Source: a virus (Duplodnaviria > Caudoviricetes). Taken from it: a stretch of 63,259 bases of DNA. The translations under genes and the position numbers were made by a program. Location of the stretch: the IMG/VR virus record IMGVR_UViG_3300042112_000104, positions 1 through 63,259 of that record; one strand, 5' to 3'. Below are positions 1-57,500 of the stretch, piece by piece. A model generated the notes under the pieces. The model was given only the letters and a program-made list of their open reading frames with translations, did not search any database and was not told where the DNA came from. Every line of letters begins with the position of its first letter. Position 1 is the first letter of the stretch.

Positions 1-236
1 TCCCAATTGCTCCATAAAGGGCTGTTGCTGGCAGTTCAGCGTTTTCATCGCCAACGGCATATGCTCCAGCAACATCTCTAGAAAATTGAGATGGAGAAAC
101 TACAGGCACAAAAGGACTTAATCCTTCAAGAGCAGATGTAATCTTTGCCTGCCTTGGATTGAATGTGTATCCAGACGTTTCTCTAGACATTTGCGCTGCC
201 ATAATTAAGCCCCTCCGTAAGTTAAGTTAGATGCGG
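1..236. repeat. Terminal direct repeat (copy 1); circular/permuted assembly overlap
   Basis: 1-236 is identical to 63024-63259 except A128 vs G63151; it falls inside coding sequence. Confidence 0.95.
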
Positions 237-936
237 GGATATTAAAGCGATTGCTTCTGGCATTTGTTCCGCCAGCATCGCGATTTGCAGCGGCAACAAG
301 TGCGGCGGGGGCGACATTGCTAGGACTCATGTATGGACTAGCTCCAGCCAGCGCTCCTCCGCCAGCGCCACCAACATTAGAAAGCGCTTGCAGCCTTGCG
401 GAATTTATGTCGAATCCACCACCGACATTGCCCATTCCTTGCGTTGCCAACGCAAATCGCTGACCAGCCGCCGCATCTGAGGCTACTTGCGCCGTATTCA
501 ATGCGCTAAGTCTATTGCTTGCGCGTTGAATAGACGCATTTTGAGACGTTGCTGCAGCTTGGTTATCCGCATCAATTGCTGCTTGGCGCTTTCTTGCCTC
601 TTCCGCTCTTGCCGCCGCTGCTTGTTGTTCTGCGAGTTGAGCCTGAAGAGCCTTGATGGCATTTTCGTTAGCCCTTTGTTGTTCAGGAGATGTTCCGCCG
701 ACAACGGTAACTGTTGGTCGCGGCGGATTGGCAATGTTGCTTATTGCCCTTCCAACGCCACCAAATGCATTTCCAATAGCGCGTCCAGCGGAGCTAACCG
801 CTCCTGTAACGCCCTTCCAAGCGCTACTGATTGCTTTGCCAAGGCTCCATCCGCCCAAAAGCAATAGCCACTCAGGACGGTTTGGAGAAAAAGCCAAACA
901 GACAGTGTTGATTATAAAATCAAACAAGCTGTCCAT
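205..936 (-). CDS. Gly/Ala/Gln-rich putative internal virion (ejection) protein, paralog 3
   Basis: Shares GGGFDIN and C-terminal LTYGGA with two neighbours; ATG follows the upstream stop (TAATATG) with GGAGG upstream. Confidence 0.65.
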   Translation of the reverse strand: MDSLFDFIINTVCLAFSPNRPEWLLLLGGWSLGKAISSAWKGVTGAVSSAGRAIGNAFGGVGRAISNIANPPRPTVTVVGGTSPEQQRANENAIKALQAQLAEQQAAAARAEEARKRQAAIDADNQAAATSQNASIQRASNRLSALNTAQVASDAAAGQRFALATQGMGNVGGGFDINSARLQALSNVGGAGGGALAGASPYMSPSNVAPAALVAAANRDAGGTNARSNRFNIPASNLTYGGA

Positions 937-937
937 A

Positions 938-1468
938 TTATGCCCCTCCGAATGTCAGGTTTGATGCTTGTGGCAAACTAAAGCGGTTTTGTGGCGCATT
1001 AGTTCCGCCTGCTTGCATATTTGCAGCAATCATGGCGGGAGAAACGCCAGTAGCAGCGCCTCCTCCTGCGGCAGGGCCAGCGGCATACGGCAAAGCGCCA
1101 GCAGCGCCAGCACCAGCAACATTGCCAAGCGCTTGCATCTTAGCGGCATTGATATCAAAGCCTCCGCCTCCGCCGCCAAGCCCAGAAGTTGCCATGCTTT
1201 GACGTTGTGCAGCCTGAGCGTCTTGCAGTTGTTGAGACGATTGAAGTCCGCTTAGCGAGCGTTGCGCTTGCTGAACAGATCCAAGTTGCTGACTGCGAGC
1301 CTGCTCGTCTTCCGCCTGAATTTTCATCTGGCGCTGGCGTTCTGCTTCGGCTCTTGCAGCGGCAGCAGCAGCCTCGGCTTGCTGTGCCTGCATTTGGCGC
1401 AACATAGCGCTATTATCGGGTGCGCTAGGCATCCGAATTTGTGGTCTTCTTCGTCCTCCTCCGCCCAT
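938..1468 (-). CDS. Gly/Ala/Gln-rich putative internal virion protein, paralog 2
   Basis: MGGGG start, coiled-coil-like Q/A-rich core, GGGFDIN, C-terminal LTFGGA. Confidence 0.7.
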   Translation of the reverse strand: MGGGGRRRPQIRMPSAPDNSAMLRQMQAQQAEAAAAAARAEAERQRQMKIQAEDEQARSQQLGSVQQAQRSLSGLQSSQQLQDAQAAQRQSMATSGLGGGGGGFDINAAKMQALGNVAGAGAAGALPYAAGPAAGGGAATGVSPAMIAANMQAGGTNAPQNRFSLPQASNLTFGGA

Positions 1469-1469
1469 A

Positions 1470-2006
1470 TTATGCTCCTCCGAATGTTAGTTTTTCAGCG
1501 TTTGGCAAAGTAAACACATTCGTCCTCTGAGTGGTTCCACCAGTGCCAGTATTAAGAGATTCAGCCGTTGTCAGCGCGGGATTAATTAGCGCTGGATTTG
1601 CAGCCAAGTTAGCAGCCGTTGAGGGCAGGGTTGTTGACGCAGCGCCAAGGTTTGCCAAAGCGGCATTCCTTGAAGCATTAATGTCAAATCCGCCTCCAGT
1701 TGCAGCCGTTCCCGCTGCTTCTTGCTCTTGTTTATACCTGTTAAGCGCAGCTTGATCGGCAAGATACTGAGATTCTTGCATTCTGCTAAGCGTATCAGCC
1801 GCGCTTTGTGTTGATTGCTGCATCTTTTGTTCAGCAGAACGGTTTTCCGCCGCAATTGCAGCTTCACGCTGTGCTCTTTCCGCCGCCGCTGCGGCTTCCC
1901 TAGCAGCAGCAATTTGTTGCTGCATCATTTGTTGCATGATTGCCGCTGAGTTGTCAGCAGGCATTTTATAAGTGATGTTTCCACCACCTCCAAATAGTCC
2001 GCCCAT
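1470..2006 (-). CDS. Gly/Ala/Gln-rich putative internal virion protein, paralog 1
   Basis: MGGLFGGGG start, GGAGG SD 8 nt upstream, GGGFDIN, C-terminal LTFGGA. Confidence 0.7.
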   Translation of the reverse strand: MGGLFGGGGNITYKMPADNSAAIMQQMMQQQIAAAREAAAAAERAQREAAIAAENRSAEQKMQQSTQSAADTLSRMQESQYLADQAALNRYKQEQEAAGTAATGGGFDINASRNAALANLGAASTTLPSTAANLAANPALINPALTTAESLNTGTGGTTQRTNVFTLPNAEKLTFGGA

Positions 2007-2072: not shown

Positions 2073-2987
2073 TTATGCCGTCATCTGTGTAAGCCCATAC
2101 ATGGTTCGATCAAATCCGCTTCCGAATCCAGAACTTCCGCCTGTTTTAGACCTAAAAATAGGGCCGTTTACAGCGCCATCAAGGCCACCGAAAATTCCGC
2201 CAAAAAGTGCCCCATATCCAGAGCCTGTAGGGCCACCCAAAGATCCGCCCGTCCATCCCTCAGATCCGCCAATGCTGATCCCTTTAAGGGTTCTATCAAT
2301 CCAAGGAGTTCCTGTTTTGACGGTTCCAAGGCTTTTTAGGGCCATAGGAACAACAGCACCCATAGCTCCAGAGGCCATACTTCCGCCCCCTCCACCCAAG
2401 TTCTTCATCATGCCTGTCATCCCGCCTGCAGATCCTGCTGCTGCTGCACCTGAAGCACCAGAAGCAGCGCCCTTGCCCCCCCCTCCCATTAGCCCCCCAA
2501 GAATGTTTCCGCTCCCGCCAGATCCACCTCCTCCCATCATTGACATCGCTGCAGGAATTGCAGCAGACAGAATGTCAGTTCCAGCACCCATAGCGGCAGT
2601 TCCGACAGCTTCCCTGTCGTCGCTGGCTATTTGGTAGTTCGCTGGATCGTCAGGCAAGAAATCGAATCCATTCTGTTCTTTCCTGCTTTGTGATTGCATC
2701 GAATTCCACTGTGCCGCTGCAGATGCTTGTTTTTGAGAAGTAATAGCGCGAGCGAATCTTTCGGAAGACGGGTTGCTCAGCGCTTCTTGTGCAAGTGAAA
2801 GCAACGCTTCCGTTCTTCTGTCAGATTCGGGCTTTCCGAAAAGCTGTCCCTGAGACATCAAATTGGCCGCATAATTCTGTTGCGCTGCCCTTTGAGATCC
2901 TGCCATAGGAGCGGGAATGTTATTGGCGCGGTAGTCCGCCGCCGTTGGAAGCGTTGCTTTTTGAACAGTTTGGTTTGATCCGCCCAT
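2073..2987 (-). CDS. Gly-rich putative ejection/pilot protein with glycine-zipper-like C-terminus
   Basis: MGGS start, GxxxG-rich hydrophobic segments, position after tail genes. Confidence 0.6.
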   Translation of the reverse strand: MGGSNQTVQKATLPTAADYRANNIPAPMAGSQRAAQQNYAANLMSQGQLFGKPESDRRTEALLSLAQEALSNPSSERFARAITSQKQASAAAQWNSMQSQSRKEQNGFDFLPDDPANYQIASDDREAVGTAAMGAGTDILSAAIPAAMSMMGGGGSGGSGNILGGLMGGGGKGAASGASGAAAAGSAGGMTGMMKNLGGGGGSMASGAMGAVVPMALKSLGTVKTGTPWIDRTLKGISIGGSEGWTGGSLGGPTGSGYGALFGGIFGGLDGAVNGPIFRSKTGGSSGFGSGFDRTMYGLTQMTA

Positions 2988-2990
2988 ATA

Positions 2991-3842
2991 TTAATCCTCT
3001 TGGAGTTGTTTAGAGTCCCAATGAATTGGCATAACGCCCAAATCCTCCATCACAATGTCTTCATAAGGAACTGATTCAGAAATATTTGTAATTGTTCCAT
3101 TCAGTTTGGGGCAATAAACGTATTTTGGCCCACGCCTATCAATGCAATTCACGCAAACTGGATAGTAATCTGAATTCATTGATTTATCTGGATTCCCAAT
3201 CCATTTGCCGCCTCGTTTAACATAACGATTGGAATCTGGCGTGATGCCATTTTCTTCCATGTAGGAAAAAACGTCTTCATCAGTCCAATCGCGCAAAGGA
3301 TACAAAGAAACAGGCGATCCTTCGGCATATCGTATGTCCATAGCCAAAGGAATTGGCCCTTTGATTGTGTCTACATCGCTGCTTTTTGTTCCAATATATG
3401 CAGCATCCCAAGGCCAACTAAAAAAACCAACTGGCCTTTTAAGATAATCGTCTAAAGCACAAAGAAATCTTTCTCCCTTTTTTGGCCTTTCGGTTCCTTG
3501 CGCTATTACCATGCAGGCTTTACCCCATTGCTGATACTTCAAAAAATCAAATCTAGGCTCTCCAGTTTCTGTGTCAGGCCCATGTAACACAGTAATTTTA
3601 GAAGCAGGATAGTCATACACTTCTAAATCCCATTGTTTGATTAAATCGTCTGAGTAAGCGTATCGCTGGCGCAATTTAGGCTCTCGGTATTGCACTACTG
3701 GCAAATCAAGTTTGCAAACATATCGAATAAAATGCAACAGAACGGTGCTGTCTTTTCCTCCTGACCAAAGGACAACAGACTTCGGCCAGCGCTTGTTCCA
3801 TTTAAGCACTTTCTCAAAAGTATTGTCCAATAGGTCTTTCAT
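2991..3842 (-). CDS. PAPS-reductase-family (PP-loop) protein
   Basis: SGGKDS PP-loop, YPLRDWTDEDVFSY motif typical of the family, C-terminal CVNC...C. Confidence 0.8.
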   Translation of the reverse strand: MKDLLDNTFEKVLKWNKRWPKSVVLWSGGKDSTVLLHFIRYVCKLDLPVVQYREPKLRQRYAYSDDLIKQWDLEVYDYPASKITVLHGPDTETGEPRFDFLKYQQWGKACMVIAQGTERPKKGERFLCALDDYLKRPVGFFSWPWDAAYIGTKSSDVDTIKGPIPLAMDIRYAEGSPVSLYPLRDWTDEDVFSYMEENGITPDSNRYVKRGGKWIGNPDKSMNSDYYPVCVNCIDRRGPKYVYCPKLNGTITNISESVPYEDIVMEDLGVMPIHWDSKQLQED

Positions 3843-4675
3843 TAGAATGCAATTGCTCCAGCGGTTAATCCTGCTCCAGCTAGTCCTCCCAACATCCCTA
3901 TGCCTGCAGCGCTTTGTGCATTTCTAGCTGCTGCATTTTGGACGGCACCCTGATAAAGCATTTGTTGATAAGCCTGTTGATTTGCGCGATTTGCCTGCGA
4001 AAGGCTTAACAAGTCTCCAATGCCCGTATTGGCAAAATCAGCAGCGGTCATTCCCAATCCTTGTGCGGCACCCAGCAATCCCGCCTGCCATCTTCCCATA
4101 GCCTCTTGATTCGCCACTTCTGCCGCTTGTTTTCCTGCCATCAAAGCGCCCGGATCCAATCCGCCCGTTGGTGCCCCATATGCATCCAGATAGCTCTGTT
4201 GCGCGGCAATGTTTCCAAGTTCAAAGTCTCTTCCTGCCTGCGTTGCCATGTCAAACAGCGCCGATCTTCCGATAGTGCTATCAGGATCGATTCCTGTGGC
4301 GGAAATTGCTGGGATTCCCTTTGTCTTGGCCCACTCTTCCATTTGTTGCTTCCACGCCTCGCGGGAAGTTGCAGCCTGAAGCCTTTGCGGAACCTCTTGC
4401 CGCATTTTTGCTGCTTCTGGGCTGGCAAGCGCCTCATACTTTCTGGATCTTGCTAAATTTGCCATGCCAAGTTCGCCAGCCTCGCGAGAAACTTGATTCG
4501 GGCTAAACTCCTGCATTTGGGGAGTTATGTTTGAAGCGAGCTTCAGCATATCAGCTTGGTTTTTCAGAAACATCAGTCCGATCTGATTCTTCTGACCAAG
4601 AAGGGCCGCTTCCATGTCCATAGAAGGGCGCTTGATATAGTCGCCCGGATTAACTGTTGCTGGTGATCCGCCCAT
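3842..4675 (-). CDS. Putative internal virion/DNA pilot protein
   Basis: MGGS start, helical A/Q-rich body, hydrophobic Gly-rich C-terminal tail (GIGMLGGLAGAGLTAGAIAF). Confidence 0.6.
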   Translation of the reverse strand: MGGSPATVNPGDYIKRPSMDMEAALLGQKNQIGLMFLKNQADMLKLASNITPQMQEFSPNQVSREAGELGMANLARSRKYEALASPEAAKMRQEVPQRLQAATSREAWKQQMEEWAKTKGIPAISATGIDPDSTIGRSALFDMATQAGRDFELGNIAAQQSYLDAYGAPTGGLDPGALMAGKQAAEVANQEAMGRWQAGLLGAAQGLGMTAADFANTGIGDLLSLSQANRANQQAYQQMLYQGAVQNAAARNAQSAAGIGMLGGLAGAGLTAGAIAF

Positions 4676-4679
4676 ATAA

Positions 4680-5072
4680 TTACTCCTTCGGTGCTTTAAT
4701 TTCGTAGATTTCTCTGTTAAGTGGAGTAAGACCTATTTTGGTCATTATCTCGTTTGAAAAATTTGGTCTTCCTTCTTCTGTCGGCACACCGACATAAGCA
4801 ATAGATCCAGAAACTTGAACAAATGTGACCAGATCGTTTATAACACGATAAACATCGCGAGGATTTGTATGCTTTGGGTGAAAGGCTGGATAAACTGTTG
4901 GAATATAAACCCAATCTGAGTAGCCGATCAGATTGCCATCGCGGTAATGACCTAAGACGTTGATGTTCGGATGCTCATGGATTTCATGGTTGAATTCTTG
5001 CGCGAAATCAACGGCTTCAAGGAATTCGTTGGTTCCGTGTCTGAGTAGTTTGTAATCTATGCGTTTATTCAT
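4680..5072 (-). CDS. Hypothetical protein, possibly GNAT-fold (positional analogue of T7 gp13)
   Basis: About 130 aa alpha/beta pattern ending in IMTKIGL (GNAT motif-B-like), located between tail and ejection genes; start chosen at MNKRID. Confidence 0.4.
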   Translation of the reverse strand: MNKRIDYKLLRHGTNEFLEAVDFAQEFNHEIHEHPNINVLGHYRDGNLIGYSDWVYIPTVYPAFHPKHTNPRDVYRVINDLVTFVQVSGSIAYVGVPTEEGRPNFSNEIMTKIGLTPLNREIYEIKAPKE

Positions 5073-5073
5073 G

Positions 5074-5319
5074 TTATGCTCTCCCCACAAAGACCTCATT
5101 TTTGGTGGTATATCCAGCGAATTTTGCCGCCTGCTCCTGAATAACTTTCACCCTGTCTGTAAAGCTGCCACACACGGCGCAAGGCAGACATTCGGGATCC
5201 TTGTATGCGGTAAACGGGATAGAGGAATACAACGGAACCATTGCCGTGTCCGAAAACGGGCTGATGAACTTGTTGGGGAAGTTCGTAACGGGAACAGAAG
5301 CCTGTGAAATATTGGGCAT
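5074..5319 (-). CDS. Small hypothetical structural-region protein (CLPCAVC)
   Basis: ATG right after the upstream stop; fills the gap in the operon. Confidence 0.5.
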   Translation of the reverse strand: MPNISQASVPVTNFPNKFISPFSDTAMVPLYSSIPFTAYKDPECLPCAVCGSFTDRVKVIQEQAAKFAGYTTKNEVFVGRA

Positions 5320-5320
5320 T

Positions 5321-7447
5321 TTAGCAGGGGTTCGATATTTTATACTGAACAGCGGCGGCATTGGCCGCTTGAAGGGCCAAAATGCCAGCCTGCTCTTCTG
5401 CGTGAGCGTAGGAAATGAAAGAAAGAAATGATGCGGAAGCTGTAGCCGATATGGACGGGAATCCAACGCAGGGCAGCGTGACCGTCTTGTAGACCTTGGC
5501 AAAAAACGTCTTATTTTCGCCCAGAGGCCCGTCTAGTGGGCTTGGAAGAATGTCCAGTTTTAGAGAGTCTCCATTTTCTCCAACAACACAGGAAAGCGTT
5601 TCGTTGGCGTTAGGATTGCCAACAGATTTTTCGCTCCACGGGTCTTGGAAGATCCTGACAATTTCAACGCCAAGTTCTCCGCACCATTCGATAAGCATGG
5701 AAAACGCCTTGTCTATATCTGCCGTTAATGGGCTTTCGCAAGTTTCGTAGCGGACATTCCTAGTGGCGCTTTCCGTGACAAGCCTCCTATATTGGGTATT
5801 AAGGAACCCCAATTCATCGATTTCTGATTCAAAAGGCGTATTCTGATACTGATGCCTTTCGCTGATTGCCATTACTCGACGGTCTAAAACCTTTTGGTAT
5901 GCCCCTTTGCTCCCGCGAAAACTTGCCCTCACGTCAACCGTTCCTCCGATTTCCTTGCATTCAATTTCGGCGTAAACGAATTGCTTCAAATCCATACCAT
6001 CACCAAGCTGGGCGGTTTCAATCTGGCTATAAATGCGGTTATAGAATCGCGTTGTGCTTCCGTCTTGATTAATTCGTAGATACGAGTCGGTTCGCTCTGG
6101 CATGAAAGACTCCCACAGGTGGTTATAGGAGCCATCATTTGTCGCGGTGTAATCCAGCGAGAAGTGAAAGCAGCGAGGTTGCCCGTCTACCACTCCTGTT
6201 GTCCATTCTACGGGCCTTGTGCCCTCCCAGACTCCGCACCACGCAGGGTTTCTGGCCTGACCCCACTCAGAGGCAGCGGCATAGTCCAAAACCATTGTGG
6301 CCGAATTTACAGGCTCTAGATATGGAACAGAATAGAGCAAATAGTTTTCAAACGAAGAGGCGCAAATTTGGCTTTGGTTTCCCGTCATGTAGCGTTTGGT
6401 TCGCGCCATTTCCACGTCCTTATACAAAACCTGTGACGAGAGATAGCTCGCGGCAGCAACGTCAGCCGCAACCAACCCGCCTTGCGAATACCACCACATT
6501 TGACCAGCTTGGAAAGCGATGCTTTTGCCTGCAATGCAACCAACGGTAGGATAAAGCGTATTCTGGAAGTTCGCTGTGGATGCCCAAGCGGAACGATCTA
6601 GAATTCCTGAAGCCAAAGAAAATGTAGATCTGTCAGTGAAAACAATCAGGCGGGTGTCGGTGTTTTGTCCTACATACGAAACAAGCCCTGTAACTGGCCT
6701 TGAAAAGCTGAAATCGCCGCGACCAGCGCCAGATGTTCGCTCAAGCCAACTTGTCGGGTCGCCAAGATCAGAAGCCAAAACAAGATTGTTGTCCGCGATC
6801 CACATTCTATTCCCAGAAAACGCCATCCAAGTTCCCACGGGAATTTTGTCACTTTGGACACCAGTTTTGTTAGATCCATCCCAATACGCAGGAGCAGAAA
6901 TACCGTCCTGAATCATCACAATACGATGCGATGGCGTGACCGTTGTATCGCCTCCAGTTGATGTTGTGGCTGATCGTGTTCCCAAAGCGAAAATGCACTG
7001 GCTGGCATCCTCGTCCATTTTTATCCCAGCAAGCCTGTATTCTTCCCAATCTTTGGGTTGCTCAAGAGGGAACGGCGCAAAATAGACGTTCCCGCTAACC
7101 GCAAATACCATGTATGTGAGTTCATCTTTGGCAACTCCGCTTCCGTTCACGTCAAAGATTTGCCTCGGAACGGTAATAAGTTGACCGTTCACTGTTTTCT
7201 TTTCCGCTGCCTGAAACTGTTTATTTGCGGCAAAGAATATTCCGCCCTGCAAATTCCCCGGCGGCAAAGACAGGCGCATCGCATAGCCGGGTCGCGTTTG
7301 GGCAATGCCGCCGCGCACCGTGATATTAACGCCCCATTTTAATTGGTTTTCTGGAAGCGCCCACGCATTTCTGACGCTATTGACGCCCTGAACCCAACCA
7401 GCAGTGCTCTTGGTAAGCCTGCCTGCGTTGATTTGGTCGGACTTCAT
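5321..7447 (-). CDS. Putative tail nozzle/stabilisation protein (T7 gp12 / P22 gp10-like position)
   Basis: 708 aa, beta-rich propeller-like sequence; follows the putative adaptor and precedes ejection genes. Confidence 0.6.
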   Translation of the reverse strand: MKSDQINAGRLTKSTAGWVQGVNSVRNAWALPENQLKWGVNITVRGGIAQTRPGYAMRLSLPPGNLQGGIFFAANKQFQAAEKKTVNGQLITVPRQIFDVNGSGVAKDELTYMVFAVSGNVYFAPFPLEQPKDWEEYRLAGIKMDEDASQCIFALGTRSATTSTGGDTTVTPSHRIVMIQDGISAPAYWDGSNKTGVQSDKIPVGTWMAFSGNRMWIADNNLVLASDLGDPTSWLERTSGAGRGDFSFSRPVTGLVSYVGQNTDTRLIVFTDRSTFSLASGILDRSAWASTANFQNTLYPTVGCIAGKSIAFQAGQMWWYSQGGLVAADVAAASYLSSQVLYKDVEMARTKRYMTGNQSQICASSFENYLLYSVPYLEPVNSATMVLDYAAASEWGQARNPAWCGVWEGTRPVEWTTGVVDGQPRCFHFSLDYTATNDGSYNHLWESFMPERTDSYLRINQDGSTTRFYNRIYSQIETAQLGDGMDLKQFVYAEIECKEIGGTVDVRASFRGSKGAYQKVLDRRVMAISERHQYQNTPFESEIDELGFLNTQYRRLVTESATRNVRYETCESPLTADIDKAFSMLIEWCGELGVEIVRIFQDPWSEKSVGNPNANETLSCVVGENGDSLKLDILPSPLDGPLGENKTFFAKVYKTVTLPCVGFPSISATASASFLSFISYAHAEEQAGILALQAANAAAVQYKISNPC

Positions 7448-34772: not shown

Positions 34773-35153
34773 TTAGGTGCGGATGTCGATGATGGTTTCT
34801 TCTTCCAAGCGCGTTTTGACTTTTTCTTGGACGAATTGAAGTTCGACGCTTTGCGGATCATCGTTCGGGATGAGTTTGGCATAGCGGAGTTGGTCGATGA
34901 GTGGTTTGCAACCTCCTGCAAAATTGTCCAAGTCGAGGACATTGCACGATCTCCTCGTAATGCACACGATAGCGCGAGAGCGGCCTTTTTCTTTTCTTTG
35001 AGTAGGTGTGACCAGTGTTTGCCCAAGAGTTGATTGAGAGACGGTGTGAGGTATCCCGTGAGGATTATTCGCAGGCGCGGCGGCAGTTGGGCGGGAATAC
35101 GATCCATCAGGGAGTTGGTGGTATCCGAGTTTGCGGAGATCATCGAAGGTCAT
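34773..35153 (-). CDS. RusA-like Holliday junction resolvase
   Basis: DLDN...K.LID.L....LIPNDD catalytic motif; ATGA-coupled start MTFDDL. Confidence 0.65.
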   Translation of the reverse strand: MTFDDLRKLGYHQLPDGSYSRPTAAAPANNPHGIPHTVSQSTLGQTLVTPTQRKEKGRSRAIVCITRRSCNVLDLDNFAGGCKPLIDQLRYAKLIPNDDPQSVELQFVQEKVKTRLEEETIIDIRT

Positions 35154-48414: not shown

Positions 48415-48597
48415 TTAGACCTCCACTCCTACGGCTTCTGCCAGTTTGTTGATGTTACCGTTGTCCAATTCAAACGCTAGTTTGATTACTTCGGACTCAT
48501 CGGTTGTTTTCGGATCGTAGTAGATCTCGCCGCCAACGTAGGGAACGGCTTCCCAGCCTTCTGGGCGCTCGTCCCATTCTGAAAGAAGGATGTCCAT
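48415..48597 (-). CDS. Small acidic hypothetical protein
   Basis: TAATG-coupled to the giant gene. Confidence 0.5.
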   Translation of the reverse strand: MDILLSEWDERPEGWEAVPYVGGEIYYDPKTTDESEVIKLAFELDNGNINKLAEAVGVEV

Positions 48598-51500
48598 TAA
48601 GGTATGATAAGGGGCGGATTGGGGGTTTTCAACATCGAACCTATGATATCGTTGTCGTTCACGGGTCTACCCTCTTTGAGGTTTTGTGACAAGGTCGGAT
48701 GTTGTTTCGCGTAGTTCGGGAACAGGCTGGGCAAGTAAACGGGCGTTTTAATCAGGAAGTTGTTCCCGTTGGCTGGGCCAAGCATCATCCACGGATACGA
48801 GGGATGGACTTTGAACTTCGGATTCTTGAGGAGGGTATCACGCATTTTCCGCTCAGAAGCTGACATTGCCGCCTCTTGTTTCGGGTCTTTGCCAAAATAT
48901 AGCGCAAACGCATCGGGATTTGTCGAAAGCTGAATGACGGCAACTGCCTGACCAACTTTGGAGTTAATCATGTCCTCACTGTCCTGCAGCGCCTTAACCA
49001 CATTGGGCAACTGCGGAAGCCCTGATACCTTCTCCATCGCGGCCCCTCGCGCCGTAAACGAGTATCCCATGAACTCCTGCATGAAGTTCTTGTTGGCTCC
49101 CAAGGCGAGCAGGCGCTTAAACCACGCCTTATTCTTGTTGGCGTTGTAAATCTGCTTGGCCTTGTCCTCGGCTTTTTTCAGGAACTCTGGGGTGTCTCTA
49201 GCGATCCAATTCTTAACGGGTGTAAGCGATTCATTGTATTTAATGATGGCCTTGTCCGTTGGCGTGTTTTTCGGAGGTGGAATAGGGGGCAGACCCTTCT
49301 CACGGCGCTTCCTGTTAAGCGCTCCGCGCTTGATTGCCTCCTTGATCTTGTCCGCCTTCAAGTTGCCTAGCTCCAAAGCAACGTGAGCCATCTCTACTAC
49401 CCAAGGTTCCAATTTGTTTGCCTTATTAAAGGCGTCCATTTCTTGGATATATTCCGTTCCGAAAGCAATATTAGACCTATGGGCATGGTCTTCCATGATC
49501 TGAACGATGTGGTAGCCGTCATCAACGCTTGTCGCCATACGGTTTTTGACCGCTGTGACTTGGTTCTGACCAAGATTCCCCCATACAACCTTGTATTCTT
49601 TGCCGTCAGGCCCAATCACTGTTTCCTGATTCGATATAAGCCAAGGATGCATCGGGCCACCCATGTCTTTGCCAAGCGTATGGTGCCTATCAGCTTGTAG
49701 CATTCCTGCCCTTTTGCCGCTGATAGTGCTGATGTCTTTGACCTCAGGCTCTACAACGCGAGTCGGATCCATCTTAGCCAAGATGACATTGCCGTCAGTG
49801 TCTTCTAGGCCAACATAATAGAATCCGCGCTGAGGAGTTTTCTTCGGCAGTTTGACCCGTCCTTCTTGGGCAACGGTAAAGTCAGCAACGGGAGGATTCT
49901 TGCGCTTGGGAAGAAACTGCGTGAAGCCAGTAATCTCGGCTGCATTAACAAAGCCCTTCTCAAGGTTATTGCCCTCAACATCTATGGGCTTGTCGAATTC
50001 AACCTCATAAAACAAGCGCGATACGTTCTCAGGAAGGTTCACCGTTTTCGGAACGATTTCTGCAATGCCCGTGAGGGTTCCAGAAGCGTCTTGGTTCATT
50101 TTTGTGGCTGCAATTTTGTAGCCCTCAACGTCAGGAACATAAGTTTGTGGCGCGGTTCTCCACGTTTGCCCCTCATTCAGTTCGACCAAATTCTCTAGCG
50201 CTCTCGTCTCTTCGTCATTTTTCGCTACGGCTTCGCCCTCATACTGGAACCCAATGCGCTCCAATGTGTCTTGAATCGTCTCGCCCTCTTCCATTAGGGG
50301 ATTCGGCTCATCGGGAATACGGCGCGATATAAATCCTGCTGGGGTTTCCGTCACTTCATTGAACTCAGGATTCAGCATTTCTTCAATTGCTGCTGCCTCG
50401 TCACGGTCTGCCTGTTCCTGCGTCTTGCCCATCGTGCGCTGATAGAGCAGATCCATCGTCTCTGGTTGGATGTCTACAAAGTCAGACATGACCTGAGCGG
50501 CATTCAGAACATCGTTATTGGCCGAATAGCCGGGGTTGTAGCCCTCTGGGAACGTGCCTGCAGGAGGATGCACGGCAGACATCACATTGGATATATCGAC
50601 TAATATATCGTCAATTGGGCGCTGCATCCCGTTCGGGAAGTTTTCTTTCAGCACCATAAACGGATCAACCCGCTTGCCGCTACGCTTGTCTAAAGCGCCA
50701 ACTTCAGGAAGCGATGCCGCCAAATCCGAAAACAAATCCATCATGTAGCTCATCGCCGTCTTGTTCAGTTCAATGGACTTGGTTAGTTCCGCCGCCCTTT
50801 CTTCTGCGTCTGGCACTGGAATCTCTCCACGGTTCAGGCGCTCCAAAAAGCGTGTATATTGGCGCTGCAAGACAAACGGCTCAAAATCGTCTAAAATCCT
50901 TCGGGCTATGGTGGTCAGGTGAAAAGACCTGTCCAGATTGCCCAAAACCGCTGCAGGAACCCCCGTGAGAGGCACATTGACCAAGTCTAAGGCTCCCTCC
51001 TCAAATCGATCTTTGCGCCGTAGAACGTCATCCTCAGGCAAATTAGGATCCCTTTCGTAGCGCCTGCTCGGCATGAATTCTGGCTGCTGGCCCCTGCGGG
51101 GATCGTTTTCGTCCGTAAGGCGATCAATCGAATCGACCCATTCAATCCACTGCTGCTCGCCGTAACGGCTCTTCATCAGGCTGACGATGGCTTCCTTATT
51201 ATAGCCATATTCGATGGCCTTGGTGCCGTTGGCAAAGTTGATTACCCATTGGGTATTCAGGGCATCATCAAGGAGGCGCTCACTAGACGGCAGACGATCA
51301 AAGTATGCTGGTGTCGCCTCTTGGCGCATCTGCTCGTTTTCTATCTGGTCTTCTAGGCTGGGGATTAGTGACTCAAACCCGTTGATTCGGAGCGTATTTT
51401 CCCAAGCCCCAGCCTGATACTTCGGATTGTCTGTTCCGACAATTGGCGCTTCCAGCGCTTCAAATTGCGCCATCGGAAGACTGTTGTCTTCAAACATCTT

Positions 51501-54500
51501 TTGTAGCTCAGCCTGAGCCTGCTCAAATGTCTTGAACGAGCCGGGGAACAGCAGCTTGGAATCTGCAGAAGAGTCTCCCTCAAAATACAATTCAGGCGAG
51601 AATGCTCCGCGCCCGTCTGGCCCCGGCACGATGCGGATTCGCGCAAGCCAGCTTCCCTTCTTCTTATTCAATTCGCCGTCAAAGCGGACAAACGTAGCAG
51701 GCTCGCGTTGCGGCATGAATTGCGGCTGGCCCTCTTGCTCTACGCGACTAATAACGCTAGGCGATAGATCGATCTTCCACATTGGAACCAATCCCTCAAC
51801 TAGCTTTTTTTGGAAATCTAAAGCCTCTTCAACCGTTTTGAAGCGAGGACTAATCGGCTTGGTATTGTCCTCCATGCTCACCCAAAATTCTTTTTCTGTT
51901 TTGTTCCACTCGCTGCGTAGTCTGGTATCAGTTGCCTGCATACCATATTCTGGAACCCTGAGAAATGTGTCGGCAACCTTGGCCCCATAGGGCTTCATAT
52001 ATTTGCCGATATCGGATGGCTGAACGATATCGTAATAGCCCTTCATGCCTTCGCCACCAATCGTAAGATCTGCTTCAGATATGCTTTGTTCGCTTCCAGT
52101 TGCGGAAGAAGTTATTTGCTGGGCGATCTTGTTCCCCACAATCTCTTTCAATTTAACTTCTGCGGGGCGCTTTCCTTCTGCGGCCTCTCCACGAACCTGT
52201 TCTAGAATGTCTTTTATGCGACCCTCTCCAGCAAGAACGGTTCCATCACTTTGACGAACTCGCGCCGTTCCAATTACACCGGGCGTTTGCAAAACTTCTA
52301 CGTCTTCCCCTTCTGTAACATTCTGATCGTAAATAGGATCACCCTTGTAAAAGAAAACGTCTATTCCGTCTTCTCCATTTTTATAGTATCTGATGTTGTC
52401 AATAATTTGACGCATCATGTCTTGGTATCTTTGGACTTGTGTGACTCCTTTTGTCCATCCAATCCACTCAACCCCGTTTTGAGCAATAGGTTTTGACGGA
52501 ATAGCCATCATCGCTTGCACCGCTTCGGGGCTGGTAGGCCCATAAGCAACTTTATAACGCTCAAAGCGTTCGACTGCCGCATCGAATTCGTTTCTGCGGA
52601 TGGCTTCATCAGAGCTTACAGCCTTTTCTAATATTCGCTTAAACAACTGCAAACCCCAATCGCGCTTAAACGGCATATCGGGTATGCCAGCGAAATCGCC
52701 ATCTTCGGCCTCTTGCCTATTTACCGCAGTGTCAATTAAATTGGATGCCATTTCACCGATAGTAATCGGCACTTGTGTAAGCGGGTCGATTGCTTCGGTT
52801 TGGTCGGCCAGCATTTTTTTCAATGCAGACTTCAATGCAGATGCCTCCATTGCATCGGCTTCTATCCTTGCATCGTGATAAGGCGCATTTCTATCCATCA
52901 GCGGATATGCGCTGATATCGCGTTCAACTTCCTCAATGGTTTTCTTTGCGGCCTCTCCGCTTTGCTTTGCAAGCAACGCAACGTAGATTTCTTCCAAACG
53001 CCACCTATTTAAAGTGTCAATTAGTTTGGCAGGATCTTCTTCGCGCCAGCCATAGTCCCGCCCCTTTTGTGATCTGTCCGATTGGAACTCTTCAATCATT
53101 ATGCCCAAGCGGCCATTCTCATCATAACGATATTTATATCTGACATGGGCCAAATAACCCGGGGTTCGCCTATAGTGTCCTGATCTAAATTCTTTTAGCG
53201 GCTTGCCTTCGCGATTTGGGCGCGGAGTCATGGTTAGAACGGTTTCGTAATAACCGTCTCCTCCAGCAAGCGTCAGTTCCATTGTATTGTATTGCTGCCC
53301 ACCATCAACTGTCAGCAACTCAGGACGGTTTCCGCGAATGTGTTCCAGCAAAAGGTCTTTACTGATTTTCCCTCCGCCTTGAGAGGCCAGCTTATTGATG
53401 ACGTTTATTGCATCAGAGAAAATCACTTCATCTTCCCTGACTTTGTTCGGTGAATTCCAAGCGACTCGCACCGTAGCGTCTTCAGACTCTCTGGCCCGTG
53501 CTGCAGCTTCTGCCACAGCCTTTTGATCAGCGGGGACTCTAGCAATCACAGAAGTCTTTTGCTTGCCGTCAATGGTAGCAGTCTCCGTGACAATATATTC
53601 GCCAAGCATTGCTTTTGCTTGTTCTGGAGTTACGAACTTGCCCTGAATCTTGCTATTTAGCGTTCTTTCAAGCTGACTGTAGAACCCTTGTTCGCTTGTC
53701 GGCTCTTTCATTTCCCTGCGGGGCATAAATGTCGGAAGGCTGTTCGTGTTTACAGCATCTGCAAGCGCTGGCGTGATCGGGAATATCCACCCTTCGTCGG
53801 CGTCGAGATAGTCAATGTTTTTACGCTTCTGCGCTTCGCCCACGGCTTTTTCAAGCGTCTTGTATTCTGCTACAGCGCGATCAGGGGCGGTTGGATCCAT
53901 TGGGTCTTGAGGATCTTTCATGCCCAAATAAACCAACTCTCCAGTGCCTTGATCCTGTGGCTTGGGAACCTGAAACGGAAACACTTTGCTGCCGTATTTC
54001 TTCAGGAATTTGTTAACTTCATTTACGGCAATCTCATCATAATAAGGCTTGAACTTCAGACCTCCGAAAAACGTAGATCCGCGCTTTGGTTTGATGGTGT
54101 CGCTAATTCCCTCTTTGCCCTTGCGGACAATTTCATCGGCCATTTCCTTCGGAATAATTTTGTCAAGAGCCTTGCCCTTAAAATCAAAACGTCCCATGCC
54201 GGGCGACATCTCGCTAAAAATGATCTCTTTGGTATTTGGATCGACAGTCAAATAGGCATATATCCCGCTGGAAGGATACAGCAAAACCTCCATCTGCCCT
54301 GCATCGTTGACCGATCTATATTCCACCTTTTCCAAGGGAACCAAATCGCGCCAGCGTTTGGCCTGCGTTTTGCCGCCTGACCAATAAACATACTTGTGTC
54401 CGCTTTTAACTGCATCAACGATTTGATTTTTGATCAAAGCCAAGCCCCACTCGCGGCTTTGGCTGAATGGAGCCTCAGGAGGAGCTTCGGCATTTTTTGG

Positions 54501-57500
54501 TATTTTATCTCCAGCTTCTACGCGCAACTTGATCTGCGGCTTTGGAAGTCCGCTGGTGTCCAAAACCCCGCCCTTCATTTGCAGTTTGGTGCCAGATTGT
54601 TTGGATGACTGTATGGCAAGAGAAGCGGCCAACTTTGGATCGGTGCCATATGCCTCCATATAATCGTCCAAGTATTGTTCGGCATCTTCGCGACGATCAA
54701 AATCGCGTTTTAAAGCAATATCAGGGCCACCATCAACATTCAGAATCACTTGGTAGGATTGCAAATACTCGCGGTAGCCAATGGGATTACCACGGCTATC
54801 TTTTTGGCGAGCGGCTTGGTTCCTGTCGCTCTGCATTTCATGGATATGGCTGATGTCAACCAAGTGGCTGGATCCTGTTCCTCCATACATATCCATTGCA
54901 ATTTTGGGTGAAGCAAACCACCACTGACGGTATGCCGCATAAAAATCCGCTTCTTGCGGAGTGATTGCTCCCGCCTTAACTGCAGGCCCAAGACTGTCTA
55001 ACGGAATAGACTCTCCTTCTTTTTTATAAGACTCAGGAGCTTCTGGCCCGTAAAAATGCGTTGCTATGGCCTTTCCGATTTCTGGAATGGTTCGTAGTGT
55101 CGGATCAACAATTTGCCGATCACCAACGCGCATATGCGCTATGTAATACGGATAGCCTTCGTAATGCGTCTCGCGATATTCCAAACCTTCGGCGCGACCC
55201 CTGTTACTAAGCTGAAAATCTAGCTGCTTCTCTTTGTTCAAACTGCGAGCTACGCGCTCGGCTTCGGCTCTGGTTTTATATCTTGTGACGGGATCGGCAG
55301 TGTGCGGGTAGAATTTAGCGCCCTTCTTAAATACAATCTCGTATGCTCCTTCAAGTGTGACTTTTTCTTTCGGAACTTTTCTTACGCTATACTCAACCAC
55401 TTCAAGGTTCGGACGAATCTGCAGGATTTTCTCCCTGTAGTTCGTGTCGCCGGGGATTCTATATCCAGCATCACCGTATTTTGTTTGCGGGACATCCTGA
55501 AATCCTCCAATGGCCTGCGGCCAGAACCCGCGCATCCCGAAATAGTTGTTGATGTTGTAAAGGCGCTGTGTCGGGTCTTTGACCATCCCGTTAATCCGCC
55601 AATGCGTCTGTGACCGTTTTTCTTCTGCAGAAATCATGTAATCCATCTCTAGGAGATTGATTTCGCTTTCATCCATAGCGCGGTCACGATTACGAACAGC
55701 CTCATCAAGTTTTCTCATGGCCTTAGCTGCGGCGAGATCTTTGTCTTTTGCCGCCTCTAGTTCCCTGCTGGCAGCTTCTCGCTCGGCTATGTATTCGTCA
55801 TTTATGCGTTGAAAATCACGATCAGCAATTCGATCACGCTTGTCTTGTAGTTGATGCGCCCTTTCGTCTGCTGCCTCAGCAGTCAATCGCGACCAACGCT
55901 CTGCTTCTTCAACGCCAAAGTCATCGATAGCCTGAAGAGCCTTTAAGACGGCATATTTATCAATATTCCACCCAGCATCAGCCAGTTCTCCTAGAACCTC
56001 GCTCTTGATCACGCTGCTCGGCTGGCGGATTCGGGCTTTTTTCAATGCTGCCTGCGCTTCTTGTTCTGAAAGATAATATTGGAAGCGAGAAACATTGATG
56101 TCTGGAGTCCAGATATTTCCAGACTCATCATAAATTCCCCACGATCCGTTGTTGGGATCTTGTTTAACAGTATAGTTCCCAAGAAGATCAGGAATCCGAT
56201 TGCGAGCTTCTGTCTCAAGATTCAGGTAGCGGTCATACAAGGCATCAAGTTTCTGCGTGAATCGCTTCCCAGCAGGAGAAATATTCTTCCAAGAAATGGC
56301 TCGCTCGCCAGATTCTTGACCACCAAGAATGCTTAGCATGAACTTCACGTTATTCTGACGGAGATACTCCATCAGATCAGCTTTGTTTACGTTCTTGCCA
56401 TCAGTGCTTAGCGTATCGATTGCCTCGTTGATTTTACTCCATTCAATTTCGGCAGGCTTAATGCCATTCTGCGGGTTATTAATGATGGCCCTGACCTGTT
56501 CGACTGTTGCTGATTTACCCTGAATCTTTTCATCCAGCGTTCCCTCAAGCCTGCTGCTGAAGCCGGGGTAAACACGCTCATCAATCGTTAGCTCTCTCCT
56601 TGGACGCATGGGCATGAACGCAGCAGCCTCTCGGAGATCTCGGAGAGATTGCAATTCGTTTACGTATTCAGGCCCATATGCCTCGCCAAAAGCGTCTCCC
56701 ATTGCCGCCTCTTCATCTTCTAGAACGCGCAAACGATCACGCTGTTCGGAAGTCATACGGAATCCTTGTTCTTCCACCGCTTCAGGCTGACGAATTCCGC
56801 CCTCACGGCGAGGCATGAAGTTGGCCTTTGCCAATCCGTAGGCCACAGGCATTTTGGGAAGAGATGTCGGAGCAATTTGCGCTATATGATCAATGCGGAC
56901 AGACATGATCGTCCTGTCCATGTTTAAATCGCGAGGATCTCCTTTTCGGCGGGGAACCTTGGTTCTGTCTGGGTTTACGCCCTCCGTAGCAGTGTCAAAT
57001 AGGTTCAAAAAGTCGTTGAAGACGTTGCGCTTCATTGCCGCGACTTGCGGATCTGCATCAAGCAATCTTGCTTGTGGGCTGGCGACCTGACCACTTTCCG
57101 TGTATCCACTGCCGGGCAATCCCTGTTGCCAGTTATAAAGATATTTCTGCGTGAATTCGTTCCAGAATTGTTCTTTGCTGCCCTTCCAAGGCATCAAACG
57201 TGCAGGCATCCTGTCGCCCCATGCATGGAGCTTATCAAACATCCGTCCAACCGAAATGGCAGTGAACAGGAAGTTGCCAGCCTTGGACATCATCAACCCA
57301 ATCGGCACCAGATCATAATACTTCGGAGAAAACGCCTCATATTCGCCCTTCTCATTCATCATCGCGGCATAATTAATGAGATACCGCGAGCCATCGTTGC
57401 GAACCAACGCATCGTTGATGTTCAAAATAACGTCTTTGATGCTTTTCGGCAGAATGGTTTCTGGAAGACTTTTAATGGCCTCGACCTGTAATGGACTGAG

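Follow-up and report, generated by a model that had tools for sequence, protein, structure and literature searches.

A PAPS-reductase-superfamily gene in a phage virion cassette and its relation to the C-terminal tail of a neighbouring protein

Genes called 'PAPS reductase' or cysH are among the auxiliary metabolic genes most often reported from viromes. A gene that invites this name is located at 2991..3842, on the minus strand, of a complete 63-kb phage genome (63,259 nt, referred to as the window), where it is enclosed by genes of the virion module, and the question raised by this locus is what such an enzyme contributes there. Its 283-aa product is recognised as a PP-loop protein of the PAPS-reductase superfamily from the open reading frame, a Pfam match and the predicted fold. 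A sequence-only reading had described an SGGKDS enzyme between two MGG genes, overlapping the upstream one by 1 nt and separated from the downstream one by 3 nt, and the coordinates confirm this: the upstream stop codon TAA (3844-3842) and the ATG of the PP-loop gene (3842-3840) merge into TAATG, and the downstream gene starts at 2987, leaving nt 2988-2990 between the two. The same reading set the gene far from those of DNA metabolism, and the recombination and replication genes are indeed found at about 39-43 kb.

The late cassette and its Bcep22-like counterparts

The cassette is encoded on the minus strand and is described here in the direction of translation. A 708-aa protein (5321..7447), likely an internal virion protein and the counterpart of Bcep22 gp67, matches phrog_511 'internal virion protein' (E 1.3e-4) and occupies the position of gp67; it is 66-94% identical in 80 relatives, these being the 80 among the matches listed of roughly 210, with only 16-20% identity to the gp67 group. 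A 130-aa protein follows (4680..5072, counted from the conserved start; the reading frame could begin at 5099), modelled by AF2 with a pLDDT of 77.6. All top matches listed by Foldseek in the PDB are GNAT acetyltransferases, RimI 2cnm_A and 5isv_B included (E ~1e-4, TM ~0.6), and by sequence the protein matched neither Pfam, Bcep22 gp69 nor PDB sequences, the GNAT character being visible in the fold alone. Directly before the PP-loop gene lies an MGGS-start protein of 277 aa (3842..4675), by position the counterpart of Bcep22 gp70 and JC1 gp64. Downstream are a Gly-rich, MGGS-start protein of 304 aa (2073..2987), kept unchanged in relatives without the PP-loop gene, and three paralogous small proteins within 205..2006 (1470-2006, 938-1468 and 205-936) ending in ...LTFGGA or ...LTYGGA. 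Two of these three start with MGG, and they are conserved in the loci L002/L071, L072 and L076. Next on the circular map come a 605-aa protein (61408..63225), the N-terminus of which is repeated at window positions 2-202, and a giant protein of 4269 aa (48597..61406), located where Bcep22-like phages carry their DarB-like gene; the latter had zero Pfam matches at E <= 0.001, and a DarB-like character would follow from its position.

MGG starts are found in 4 of the 72 predicted minus-strand genes, all within this run, while ~0.4 would be expected from a Gly frequency of 0.073. A codon-level Shine-Dalgarno artefact was rejected as the origin of the motif, the codons at 2987 reading ATGGGCGG and not GGAGG, as was an N-terminal ring closure of the lasso-peptide kind, since neither Asp nor Glu occupies positions 7-9 after the Gly. 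The presumed label 'ejection protein' for the MGG genes derives from their position and from mass spectrometry of the Bcep22-like counterparts in phage JC1.

This arrangement is the late cassette already annotated, and there functionally unexplained, in Bcep22-like podophages (Lessievirus, Gervaisevirus), which encode gp67 (internal virion protein), gp68, gp69 (acyl-CoA N-acyltransferase), gp70 (virion protein), gp73 ('PAPS reductase'), gp74 and gp75 (DarB-like). Gene order is common to both, and genome size is similar (63.3 kb for the window, 61-64 kb for the Bcep22-like phages). Each has a GNAT-fold gene, then a virion-module protein with a Gly/Ala-rich hydrophobic tail, a PAPS_reduct-superfamily gene directly after that tail, further virion proteins and a protein of >4000 aa. 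The window differs in its extra MGG/FGGA paralogs, in a giant protein without a recognisable domain, and in counterparts of gp70, gp69 and gp67 that share no significant sequence similarity with those of Bcep22; for the 277-aa protein and gp70, BLASTP similarity outside the tail was not significant. As for a published function of the gene in this virion cassette, the literature gave only a moron or sulfate-reduction reading, which is the one adopted for the homolog in the papers on JC1 and CSP3. Virion mass spectrometry of JC1, as given in the main text on that phage, detected 16 proteins, gp64, gp67, gp68 and gp69 among them, and the PAPS reductase gp65, which belongs to a different subfamily in another phage, is not one of the 16. 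The earlier suggestion that the enzyme may be injected is therefore disfavoured, and by analogy with gp65 the PP-loop enzyme is probably not packaged.

Motifs, fold and family of the PP-loop protein

The sole Pfam match of the window protein is PAPS_reduct (PF01507), with an E value of 1.1e-6 and 29.3 bits, above the gathering cut-off of 22.5. The SGGKDS motif comprises residues 27-32 (nt 3747-3764), and of the invariant Cys residues Cys128 is encoded at nt 3459-3461 and Cys230, Cys233 and Cys244 inside nt 3111-3155. Across 245 full-length family members S[GFS]GKDS is kept in 232 and each of the four Cys is present in 244, a retention which marks the family as a conserved nucleotide-using enzyme, not a relic. 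The AF2 model (pLDDT 89.3) was aligned by VIA-align with CysD 1zun_A (Z 12.5, rmsd 2.9, 160 aligned), APS reductase 4bwv_B (Z 12.1, rmsd 3.1, 166 aligned), FAD synthase 8ron_A (Z 12.1, rmsd 3.1, 161 aligned) and 7rge_A (Z 11.7), and against PDB sequences the family profile gave E 3.5e-18 for CysD 1zun_A and ~1e-8 for CysH. By Pfam score and shared fold, the protein is a member of the PAPS_reduct superfamily.

CysD, the APS/PAPS reductases (CysH) and the eukaryote-type FAD synthase are thus the closest in fold and profile, and the comparison also exposes what sets the window protein apart. The ECG[LI]H motif of CysH, which the sequence-only reading had not seen, is missing from it and from the whole family (0 of 245 full-length members). 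The NCBIfam models for CysH (NF002537; 18.6 bits, cut-off 154) and CysD (33.7 bits, cut-off 195) were not reached. The PP-loop is intact, ATP-type and CysD-like, at the place where E. coli CysH has FGIQAA. The window protein further departs from these enzymes in an additional beta-hairpin region, located around residues 82-118, and in its C-terminal module, CxxC...CPK, and its gene, unlike those of CysD and CysH, resides in a phage virion operon. Judged from these sequence features, namely the missing ECG[LI]H, the intact PP-loop and the four invariant Cys, the gene is not a CysH, and the earlier doubt about a cysH-type assignment is borne out. Nor did the scan of 56 window ORFs with Pfam and PHROGs match CysN, CysC, Dnd, Ssp or other sulfur-assimilation families, in agreement with the earlier statement that such partners were not recognisable.

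Two subfamilies can be distinguished. The window enzyme has 283 aa and the pattern C128...C230xxC233...C244, while members of the Bcep22 subfamily have 242 aa and CC...CxxC, C128 aligning with the CC pair. A CC...CxxC-like Cys pattern, which that of the Bcep22 homolog resembles, is characteristic of Fe-S APS reductases, and DndC-type enzymes have a PP-loop and a Cys-ligated cluster in common. By hhalign the window subfamily and Bcep22 gp73 are related with a probability of 97.9% (E 5e-13, 19% identity over 171 columns), and the PP-loop genes of 80 Bcep22-like loci all score higher with the gp73-type than with the window-family model.

Members of the family come almost exclusively from viral contigs. 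In a species-representative genome set, 1 true family member was found among the matches listed, located in the same cassette. Among 50,697 phage records, tblastn matched neither the window enzyme nor the distant member L064; a third member, L035, retrieved only remote PAPS reductases of Bacillus phages and one archaeal virus (24-28% identity). Every strong homolog examined shares the cassette context, so that the synteny survey turned up none of the unrelated contexts which the sequence-only reading had named as evidence against its view. Within the family, the fused member P0233 has a degenerate loop, SFSKKC, indicating that the motif can decay elsewhere, and the distant member P0168 carries an S74-like C-terminal domain of its own.

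The upstream tail and its alternation with Peptidase_S74

The last ~25 residues of the 277-aa protein form a Gly/Ala-rich hydrophobic tail (nt 3845-3919, ...NAQSAAGIGMLGGLAGAGLTAGAIAF), which stops exactly at the stop codon (...GLAGAGLTAGAIAF). The corresponding end of Bcep22 gp70 is ...AGLMGGLGTIAGAGIMAF (...GTIAGAGIMAF) and that of the Gervaise counterpart is ...GTIGGAALMVF. All 59 loci retrieved with the PP-loop gene as seed, at identities down to 31%, have an upstream reading frame with such an end, and so do all 49 gene-carrying loci seeded by the 708-aa gene. In a set of 110 loci, in which some contigs are present under two locus ids, the final residue of the upstream protein is I, V, L, F, Y or A throughout (110/110). 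Measured from the upstream stop to the start of the PP-loop gene, the distance is -1 nt in 77 loci of this set, -4 in 3, 0 to +3 in 20 and 17-40 in 10, so that spacing is <=3 nt in 100 of the 110.

Loss of the gene was followed in 52 loci with at least 2600 nt downstream of the 708-aa gene, drawn from 80 IMG/VR relatives listed of roughly 210. The PP-loop gene is present in 49 and absent in 3 (L072, L073 and L076), probably by a single event, and in these three the upstream protein is intact and ends in ...AMYFGGR or ...AMYFGGGKFK. These observations bear on two further claims of the sequence-only reading. A link to a virion protein stands, the presence of the gene being tied to a neighbouring protein of the virion module. 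The GGA-tail peptides proposed as substrates find no support: it is the hydrophobic ...AIAF-type tail, and not the FGGA tails, that comes and goes with the gene, and where the gene is absent the upstream protein itself has an FGG-type end.

The Bcep22 subfamily provides a second and larger comparison. Bcep22 and Gervaise have the tail plus the 'PAPS reductase', while Parlo, PEp14, SopranoGao, POI1126, PBC5 and Atu_ph08 have no PP-loop gene, and their homologs run past the tail (...GMGLMAF continuing as SSKDYKEDK, ...GGLIFK continuing as SDEDAKENK) into a Peptidase_S74 domain (PF13884; in Parlo E 5.8e-9, residues 326-375). Peptidase_S74, known as the C-terminal domain of endosialidases and tail fibres, is an intramolecular chaperone of folding and trimerisation that acts in cis by self-cleavage. 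In the gp70-like protein it comes straight after that same hydrophobic tail, and it and the PP-loop gene exclude each other, although it has an unrelated fold and does not use nucleotides. Genes of the gp73 type occur in 31 Ralstonia and 10 Burkholderia records and 2 others, and the 41 Ralstonia and Burkholderia records correspond in organism group and count to the gp70 homologs without an S74 part. In an unbiased, gp67-seeded sample of 80 IMG/VR loci listed of roughly 280, 67 were scorable; 45 have the tail with a PP-loop gene, 21 have a tail-S74 fusion without one, 1 lacks the two of them, and the combination of both occurs in 0.

On a gp67 tree of 66 rows this label needs 5 changes, of which well-supported branches force at least 2; shuffled labels need 17.9 on average, and none of 500 shuffles was as low as 5. 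Co-inheritance of neighbours can mimic functional coupling, and the switches on the tree could be recombinational exchanges of a gp70-plus-enzyme module and not independent replacements. The alternation is established for the Bcep22 subfamily; in the window's own subfamily the comparable observation is the 3-locus loss.

Proposed role of the enzyme and competing explanations

Since related phages carry either the gene or S74 at the tail, never both, the PP-loop gene would most likely serve the tail of its neighbour. Our preferred reading, held with roughly even confidence, is that it encodes an ATP-using PP-loop enzyme which is made late, stays out of the virion and acts in maturation or assembly of the C-terminal tail of the upstream protein. 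Observation covers the fold, the motif conservation, the translational coupling and the strict either/or relation with S74, and the chemistry on the tail is what we infer. The enzyme would belong to the CysD/APS-reductase/FAD-synthase branch, with a putative four-cysteine metal site (Fe-S or Zn), and would be made late, alongside the internal virion (ejection) proteins. On the substrate side would stand a Gly/Ala-rich hydrophobic tail of ~20 residues with a free, genetically encoded C-terminus. Because it is translated from an overlapping start codon, the enzyme would be synthesised beside the emerging tail. It may then bind the tail and most likely activate the terminal carboxylate as an acyl-adenylate, leading to a cap (amide or thiocarboxylate) or otherwise to a tail prepared or held for assembly. 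In this manner the enzyme would perform in trans the task for which sister phages have the S74 domain in cis, and it would stand outside sulfate assimilation.

In a more explicit and decidedly tentative version, the ejection protein would insert into membranes and have its free C-terminal carboxylate adenylated by the PP-loop enzyme, of the CysD/APS-reductase branch, giving an amide, a thiocarboxylate or a ligation, while the GNAT protein would acylate the N-terminal glycine. We know of no member of the PAPS_reduct branch that adenylates a protein carboxylate.

Complex prediction with the enzyme, residues 190-277 of the upstream protein and ATP (3 runs, 3 controls) returned a verdict of 'weak support', with a score of 0.56 (runs 0.57, 0.46 and 0.56) against 0.00 for the best of the 3 controls, 0.56 lying in a band which, according to the tool, is more often wrong than right absent a strong prior. 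At least 42% of contacts are common to the runs, with a partner pLDDT of at least 43. Of 80 solved complexes 58 attained this mark, as did 2 of 110 mismatched pairs, just 7 of the 80 and both mismatches doing so at 0.60 or under. The score bears equally on a modifying enzyme and on a holdase.

Such a holdase, a trans-acting assembly chaperone without covalent chemistry that binds the nascent tail, with ATP binding as no more than a switch, and stands in for S74 purely as an aid to folding or trimerisation, is an unlikely alternative. The either/or relation with a domain of precisely that role favours it, as do the tight translational coupling, the more polar end (...FGGR or ...FGGGKFK) that accompanies gene loss, and the complex score, which fits it equally. 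However, a catalytic-type PP-loop kept in 232 of 245 members and four Cys kept in 244 are unusual for a mere binding protein, and P0233 shows that the motif can decay elsewhere. An effect on the other end of the protein is improbable: here the enzyme, like the QueC-family proteins Cap9 and QatC, would join an adenylated small carboxylate to Gly2 of MGG(S) proteins after Met removal. Cap9 (type IV CBASS) and QatC do offer a precedent for a PP-loop adenylating enzyme with a protein terminus as substrate, both flanking proteins start with MGGS, and Cap9 (9nto_B) is a structural neighbour (Z 7.3, rmsd 3.8, 138 aligned; profile E 0.0019). According to PMC13279940, MGGS is also the motif of the CD-NTases modified by Cap9, and QatB has MGTS. 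Nonetheless, these belong to a different PP-loop family and to defence, while the window enzyme co-varies with a C-terminus and has a virion-assembly context; the Cap9 score lies well below that of CysD (Z 12.5), and CysD and APS reductase are much closer to it in fold than QueC. MG-start proteins are moreover unchanged in the three close relatives without the gene, and such starts occur without it in the S74-type phages PBC5 (MGKGSS) and Atu_ph08 (MGKGST) and in the S74-type loci L193, L201-L203, L217 and L235, while Bcep22 gp70 adjoins a PP-loop gene yet has no MG start. The GNAT protein of RimI-like fold directly upstream is a simpler candidate for the N-terminus.

A metabolic role, as a cysH- or cysD-like auxiliary or moron gene by which sulfate assimilation or some other metabolic step of the host is raised in the course of infection or lysogeny, appears highly improbable. 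It agrees with superfamily membership, with the interpretation in the JC1 and CSP3 papers, and with the homolog not having been detected in JC1 virions. Against it stand the missing ECG[LI]H (0/245), the low CysH (18.6 against 154) and CysD (33.7 against 195) scores and the lack of CysN among the 56 ORFs; in 100 of 110 loci the gene also lies inside a late virion operon and is translationally coupled to it, it is present or absent according to how a virion protein ends, and the family is almost confined to viral contigs, with the 1 true genome-set member among the matches listed in the same cassette. The least probable reading is a packaged and injected effector, for instance in anti-defence, or a DndC-like DNA-modifying enzyme. 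Its appeal comes from the neighbouring genes, for presumed ejection proteins and, further downstream, for a giant protein that is DarB-like in relatives, and from the PP-loop and Cys-ligated cluster common to DndC-type enzymes; yet the JC1 counterpart is missing from the virion proteins identified by mass spectrometry, Dnd and Ssp partners number 0 in the 56 ORFs scanned, and the giant gene is kept in S74-type sister phages without the PP-loop enzyme.

Together with the 41 cultured Burkholderia and Ralstonia phage records that carry the sister gene, the window gene represents a large group of PAPS-reductase calls which sit in a virion operon and follow the end of a virion protein, and these should not be counted as sulfur metabolism. 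The alternation with S74 provides a concrete, testable hypothesis for an enzyme without a known substrate, and may reveal a new way to finish the C-terminus of a membrane-active phage protein. If the explicit version is true, both ends of the protein would be capped for membrane entry, by a C-terminal protein modification system repeatedly swapped in evolution with the self-cleaving S74 chaperone domain. In Bcep22-like phages, which are therapeutic candidates, the function of the trio of GNAT, protein and enzyme thereby becomes experimentally approachable.

The PP-loop gene and its late cassette

At 63,259 bp, the window is a single complete virus record (CheckV completeness 100), with essentially all genes carried on the minus strand. 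Its PP-loop gene (2991..3842, minus strand) encodes 283 amino acids with SGGKDS at residues 27-32. The upstream gene (3842..4675, minus strand) stops in a TAA at 3844-3842, whose last base is also the first of the enzyme's ATG (3842-3840); on the other side, 3 nt separate the enzyme gene from the downstream gene, which begins at 2987. Both flanking genes begin with MGGS, and all four MGG starts among the 72 predicted genes lie inside this run, confirming the sequence-only reading of an SGGKDS enzyme set at this spacing between MGG neighbours.

From upstream to downstream, the minus-strand run first comprises a fibre-like protein of 1161 aa and a 708-aa protein that weakly matches "internal virion protein" (phrog_511, 1.3e-4). 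It continues with a 130/139-aa ORF of predicted GNAT fold, the 277-aa MGGS protein, the PP-loop enzyme, a 304-aa Gly-rich MGGS protein (2073-2987) and three small paralogous proteins (205-2006) with LTFGGA or LTYGGA ends, followed, past the record's overlapping ends, by a 605-aa protein (61408..63225) and a 4269-aa protein (48597-61406). No sequence-level family was found for the 130-aa ORF; its predicted fold (pLDDT 77.6) gives GNAT acetyltransferases for all Foldseek top matches listed, the N-alpha-acetyltransferase RimI among them.

This run is a Bcep22-like late cassette, an arrangement already annotated in Bcep22-like phages. In Bcep22 the annotation reads gp67 (internal virion protein), gp68, gp69 (acyl-CoA N-acyltransferase), gp70 (virion structural protein) and, further on, gp73 (phosphoadenosine phosphosulfate reductase), gp74 and gp75 (DarB-like), with Gervaise annotated alike. 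The C-terminus of gp70, ...AGLMGGLGTIAGAGIMAF, is matched in position by ...GIGMLGGLAGAGLTAGAIAF in the 277-aa window protein. gp73 (242 aa, with FSGGKDS and CC...CxxC) aligns to the window family in hhalign with 97.9% probability (E 5e-13, 19% identity), Cys128 facing the gp73 CC pair. In the JC1 paper, virion mass spectrometry detects gp64 (the gp70 homolog), gp67, gp68 and gp69, while the acetyltransferase gp63 and the PAPS reductase gp65 are not among the virion proteins detected, leaving the earlier suggestion of an injected enzyme unsupported. The same paper reads gp63 and gp65 as moron genes for host physiology, much the same interpretation appears in the CSP3 paper, and no functional proposal for this gene other than moron or host physiology was found in the literature searched.

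Several further features of the genome were recorded. Window bases 1-127 are repeated exactly at 63024-63150 and ORF 2..202 is again the N-terminus of the 605-aa gene, therefore the record ends overlap; the genome is circularly permuted or terminally redundant, the record being classed as linear in the collection. The 4269-aa ORF makes up a fifth of the genome, stands at the DarB-like position of Bcep22-like phages and has no Pfam match at E <= 0.001. A TET-associated glycosyltransferase gene (PF20691, 1.9e-37; phrog_842) and a GP88-family gene (PF17338, 1.5e-32), at 35150-36025 and 37388-38152, suggest by their family matches a cytosine hypermodification module. In 65 relatives' loci a ~93-aa PF03692 CxxCxxCC gene (putative Zn/Fe-chelating) occurs among the MGG genes (L021:8267-8548, L011:4352-4633 and L018:4913-5194; E about 1e-9 to 4e-10 in these three scanned), and none is found in the window (best tblastn E 1.1). 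At the position of the FGGA paralogs, small proteins of cultured relatives end ...SLIGGDQ (Parlo gp79) and ...SLFGGNS (SopranoGao gp08); taken with the LT(F/Y)GGA ends, an FGG-type C-terminal motif therefore seems common to internal proteins of the window and cultured relatives.

Fold, motifs and distribution of the enzyme

The enzyme matches PAPS_reduct in Pfam (E 1.1e-6, 29.3 bits against a cut-off of 22.5) and phrog_424 in PHROGs (2.7e-10), with NCBIfam CysD (33.7 against 195) and CysH (18.6 against 154) both far under their cut-offs. An AlphaFold2 model from 30 homologs (pLDDT 89.3, pTM 0.86), compared with about 48,000 PDB representatives, is nearest to CysD (1zun_A; Z 12.5, rmsd 2.9, 160 aligned), then moss APS reductase (4bwv_B, Z 12.1), human FAD synthase (8ron_A, Z 12.1) and PAPS reductase (7rge_A, Z 11.7). 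Lower matches are other PP-loop enzymes, namely TilS, NcsA (Z 9.4), GMP synthase, LarE (Z 9.1) and Cap9 (Z 7.3), and Foldseek is in accord. The family profile finds CysD with E 3.5e-18 and CysH with about 1e-8, and profile alignments place the family's S[FG]GKDS opposite SSSFGIQAAV in E. coli CysH. Across 245 full-length members, S[GFS]GKDS is kept in 232 and Cys128, Cys230, Cys233 and Cys244 in 244 each, with ECG[LI]H in none. Given a conserved PP-loop and four cysteines, a missing ECG[LI]H and a low CysH score, the protein is therefore a conserved PP-loop enzyme of ATP type whose metal site is made of four cysteines, and it is not a sulfonucleotide reductase such as CysH.

At E <= 0.001 the family numbers 217 proteins out of 399 candidates in the 90%-clustered set, many of them encoded on contigs of 60-64 kb, and 324 representatives in a 50%-clustered library. 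Searching 50,697 phage records by tblastn with the window enzyme and its relatives found no member of this subfamily in cultured phages. Among the matches listed from species-representative genomes there is one true member, L236, a MAG contig labelled Chthoniobacter flavus with the same cassette at 2971-6142, in which a 672-aa protein ending ...GGMVLGMTALAI overlaps the PP-loop gene and is followed by a CxxCxxCC-like ORF; the label hints at a Verrucomicrobiota host. Distant members include SET-domain fusions (P0153, P0161), TPR plus GT9 fusions (P0233, P0234; PP-loop degenerate in P0233) and an enzyme with its own S74-like C-terminal domain (P0168), anecdotal cases whose domain content may hint at protein-directed work. 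In P0186, a 670-aa representative, an intein containing a LAGLIDADG domain (PF14890, PF14528) precedes the matched PP-loop part, query residues 31-265 matching at residues 423-656.

The hydrophobic tail and the Peptidase_S74 domain

An enzyme-seeded search returned 65 IMG/VR loci, 59 of them strong, down to 31% identity. In all 59, the upstream ORF finishes at its stop codon with a hydrophobic stretch rich in Gly and Ala (...GMMGMLGGIGGGALTGVGLAL or ...GAGGAVAGAAIGAAIII, for example), which is kept although the protein bodies of the more distant relatives share only 14-45% identity with that of the window. Over 110 loci, with some contigs counted under two ids, the enzyme's start lies at -1 nt from the upstream stop in 77, at -4 in 3, at 0 to +3 in 20 and at 17-40 in 10; all 110 upstream proteins terminate in I, V, L, F, Y or A. 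The strong homologs examined, L236 included, occupy the same cassette. The sequence-only reading was right that the gene is not cysH and is linked to virion proteins; its presence follows the C-terminus of the upstream protein.

Seeding with the 708-aa gene sampled 80 IMG/VR loci of roughly 210 relatives (66-94% identity); 52 of these extend far enough downstream to be judged, and 49 of them carry the enzyme. The other three (L072, L073, L076), probably reflecting one evolutionary event of loss, retain all neighbour genes intact and their MGG starts; here the upstream protein ends ...QAGAMYFGGGKFK or ...QAGAMYFGGR and directly abuts the next gene. With a more polar tail end (...FGGR or ...FGGGKFK), the enzyme seems to become dispensable. 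GGA tails, earlier put forward as substrates, are unsupported, because the gene tracks the hydrophobic tail and an FGG-type end occurs where the gene is missing.

Peptidase_S74 is an intramolecular-chaperone self-cleavage domain. Six cultured phages that lack the enzyme (Parlo, PEp14, SopranoGao, POI1126, PBC5, Atu_ph08) have a gp70 homolog longer by 55-160 aa (386-437 aa versus 277 in Gervaise and 331 in Bcep22), in which the same tail runs straight into S74 (...GMGLMAF|SSKDYKEDK, ...GGLIFK|SDEDAKENK; in Parlo, PF13884 at E 5.8e-9 from residue 326). Records with a gp73-type gene number 31 for Ralstonia and 10 for Burkholderia, with two others besides, and those 41 records represent the same organism groups and counts in which the gp70 homolog stops before the S74 part.

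An unbiased sample, seeded by the gp67-like protein, held 80 IMG/VR loci of roughly 280 relatives, 67 of them scorable after setting aside 11 with no gp70-like ORF in reach and two (L207, L225) with too little downstream sequence. Tail plus enzyme is found in 45, the enzyme's ORF start lying beside the stop in 38, its first aligned residue at -1 to +12 nt in 6 and at +660 in one; S74 with no enzyme anywhere in the locus is found in 21, and both together in none of the 67. The single locus with neither, L221, may end in an undetected S74-like domain. In all 13 junctions displayed, from the 21 S74 loci, the tail abuts an S(S/D)(K/E) motif. When gp67-like proteins are placed on a quick maximum-likelihood tree (LG+G4, 66 rows, L221 left out), the PP/S74 label needs to change 5 times, at least 2 of these forced by well-supported branches, against a mean of 17.9 for shuffled labels, with 0/500 shuffles as low. 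The two states always swap as wholes, and the switches may reflect modules being exchanged and not separate inventions.

Target terminus and proposed role

A striking analogy would place the modification on the MGGS N-terminus. The QueC-family PP-loop enzyme Cap9 is described as putting deazaguanine on Gly2 of MGGS-bearing CD-NTases (PMC13279940; also PMC13639016), with QatB starting MGTS (PMC13279940), and the MGGS starts of the 3842-4675 and 2073-2987 proteins are the motif reported there for type IV CBASS CD-NTases. However, MG-starts persist in every enzyme-less relative examined, Bcep22 gp70 has no MG-start and yet is followed by the enzyme, and a RimI-like GNAT sits ahead of the MGGS protein; we therefore infer that the GNAT is the partner of the N-terminus and the PP-loop enzyme that of the C-terminal tail. 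A predicted complex joining the enzyme, upstream-protein residues 190-277 and ATP scored 0.56 (runs 0.57, 0.46, 0.56), rated "weak support", with the best of 3 controls at 0.00, contact agreement of at least 42% and partner pLDDT of at least 43. This mark is reached by 58/80 solved complexes and 2/110 mismatched pairs, and at 0.60 or under by only 7/80 solved complexes plus both mismatches; with the genomic prior, the model nudges the odds up but proves nothing.

PP-loop enzymes share an ATP-driven adenylation of an oxygen nucleophile. What is shown is the fold, the motifs, the coupling to the upstream gene and the mutual exclusion with S74, and the function as a whole is one we infer: the enzyme would meet the tail while it is being made and use ATP to adenylate an oxygen nucleophile, most simply the tail's free terminal carboxylate, to give an amide, a thiocarboxylate or a ligation product. 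For the thiocarboxylate route, the four cysteines could hold an Fe-S cluster, as in the NcsA and LarE-type sulfur insertases that are its structural neighbours. Alternatively, the enzyme would only hold the tail until assembly. The analysis adds a separate subfamily of the enzyme, found in an uncultured group of ~63-kb phages, natural cases of enzyme loss and a quantified, tree-checked mutual exclusion with Peptidase_S74; whether by modifying or by holding the tail, the enzyme would stand in, in trans, for the role of the S74 domain in cis.
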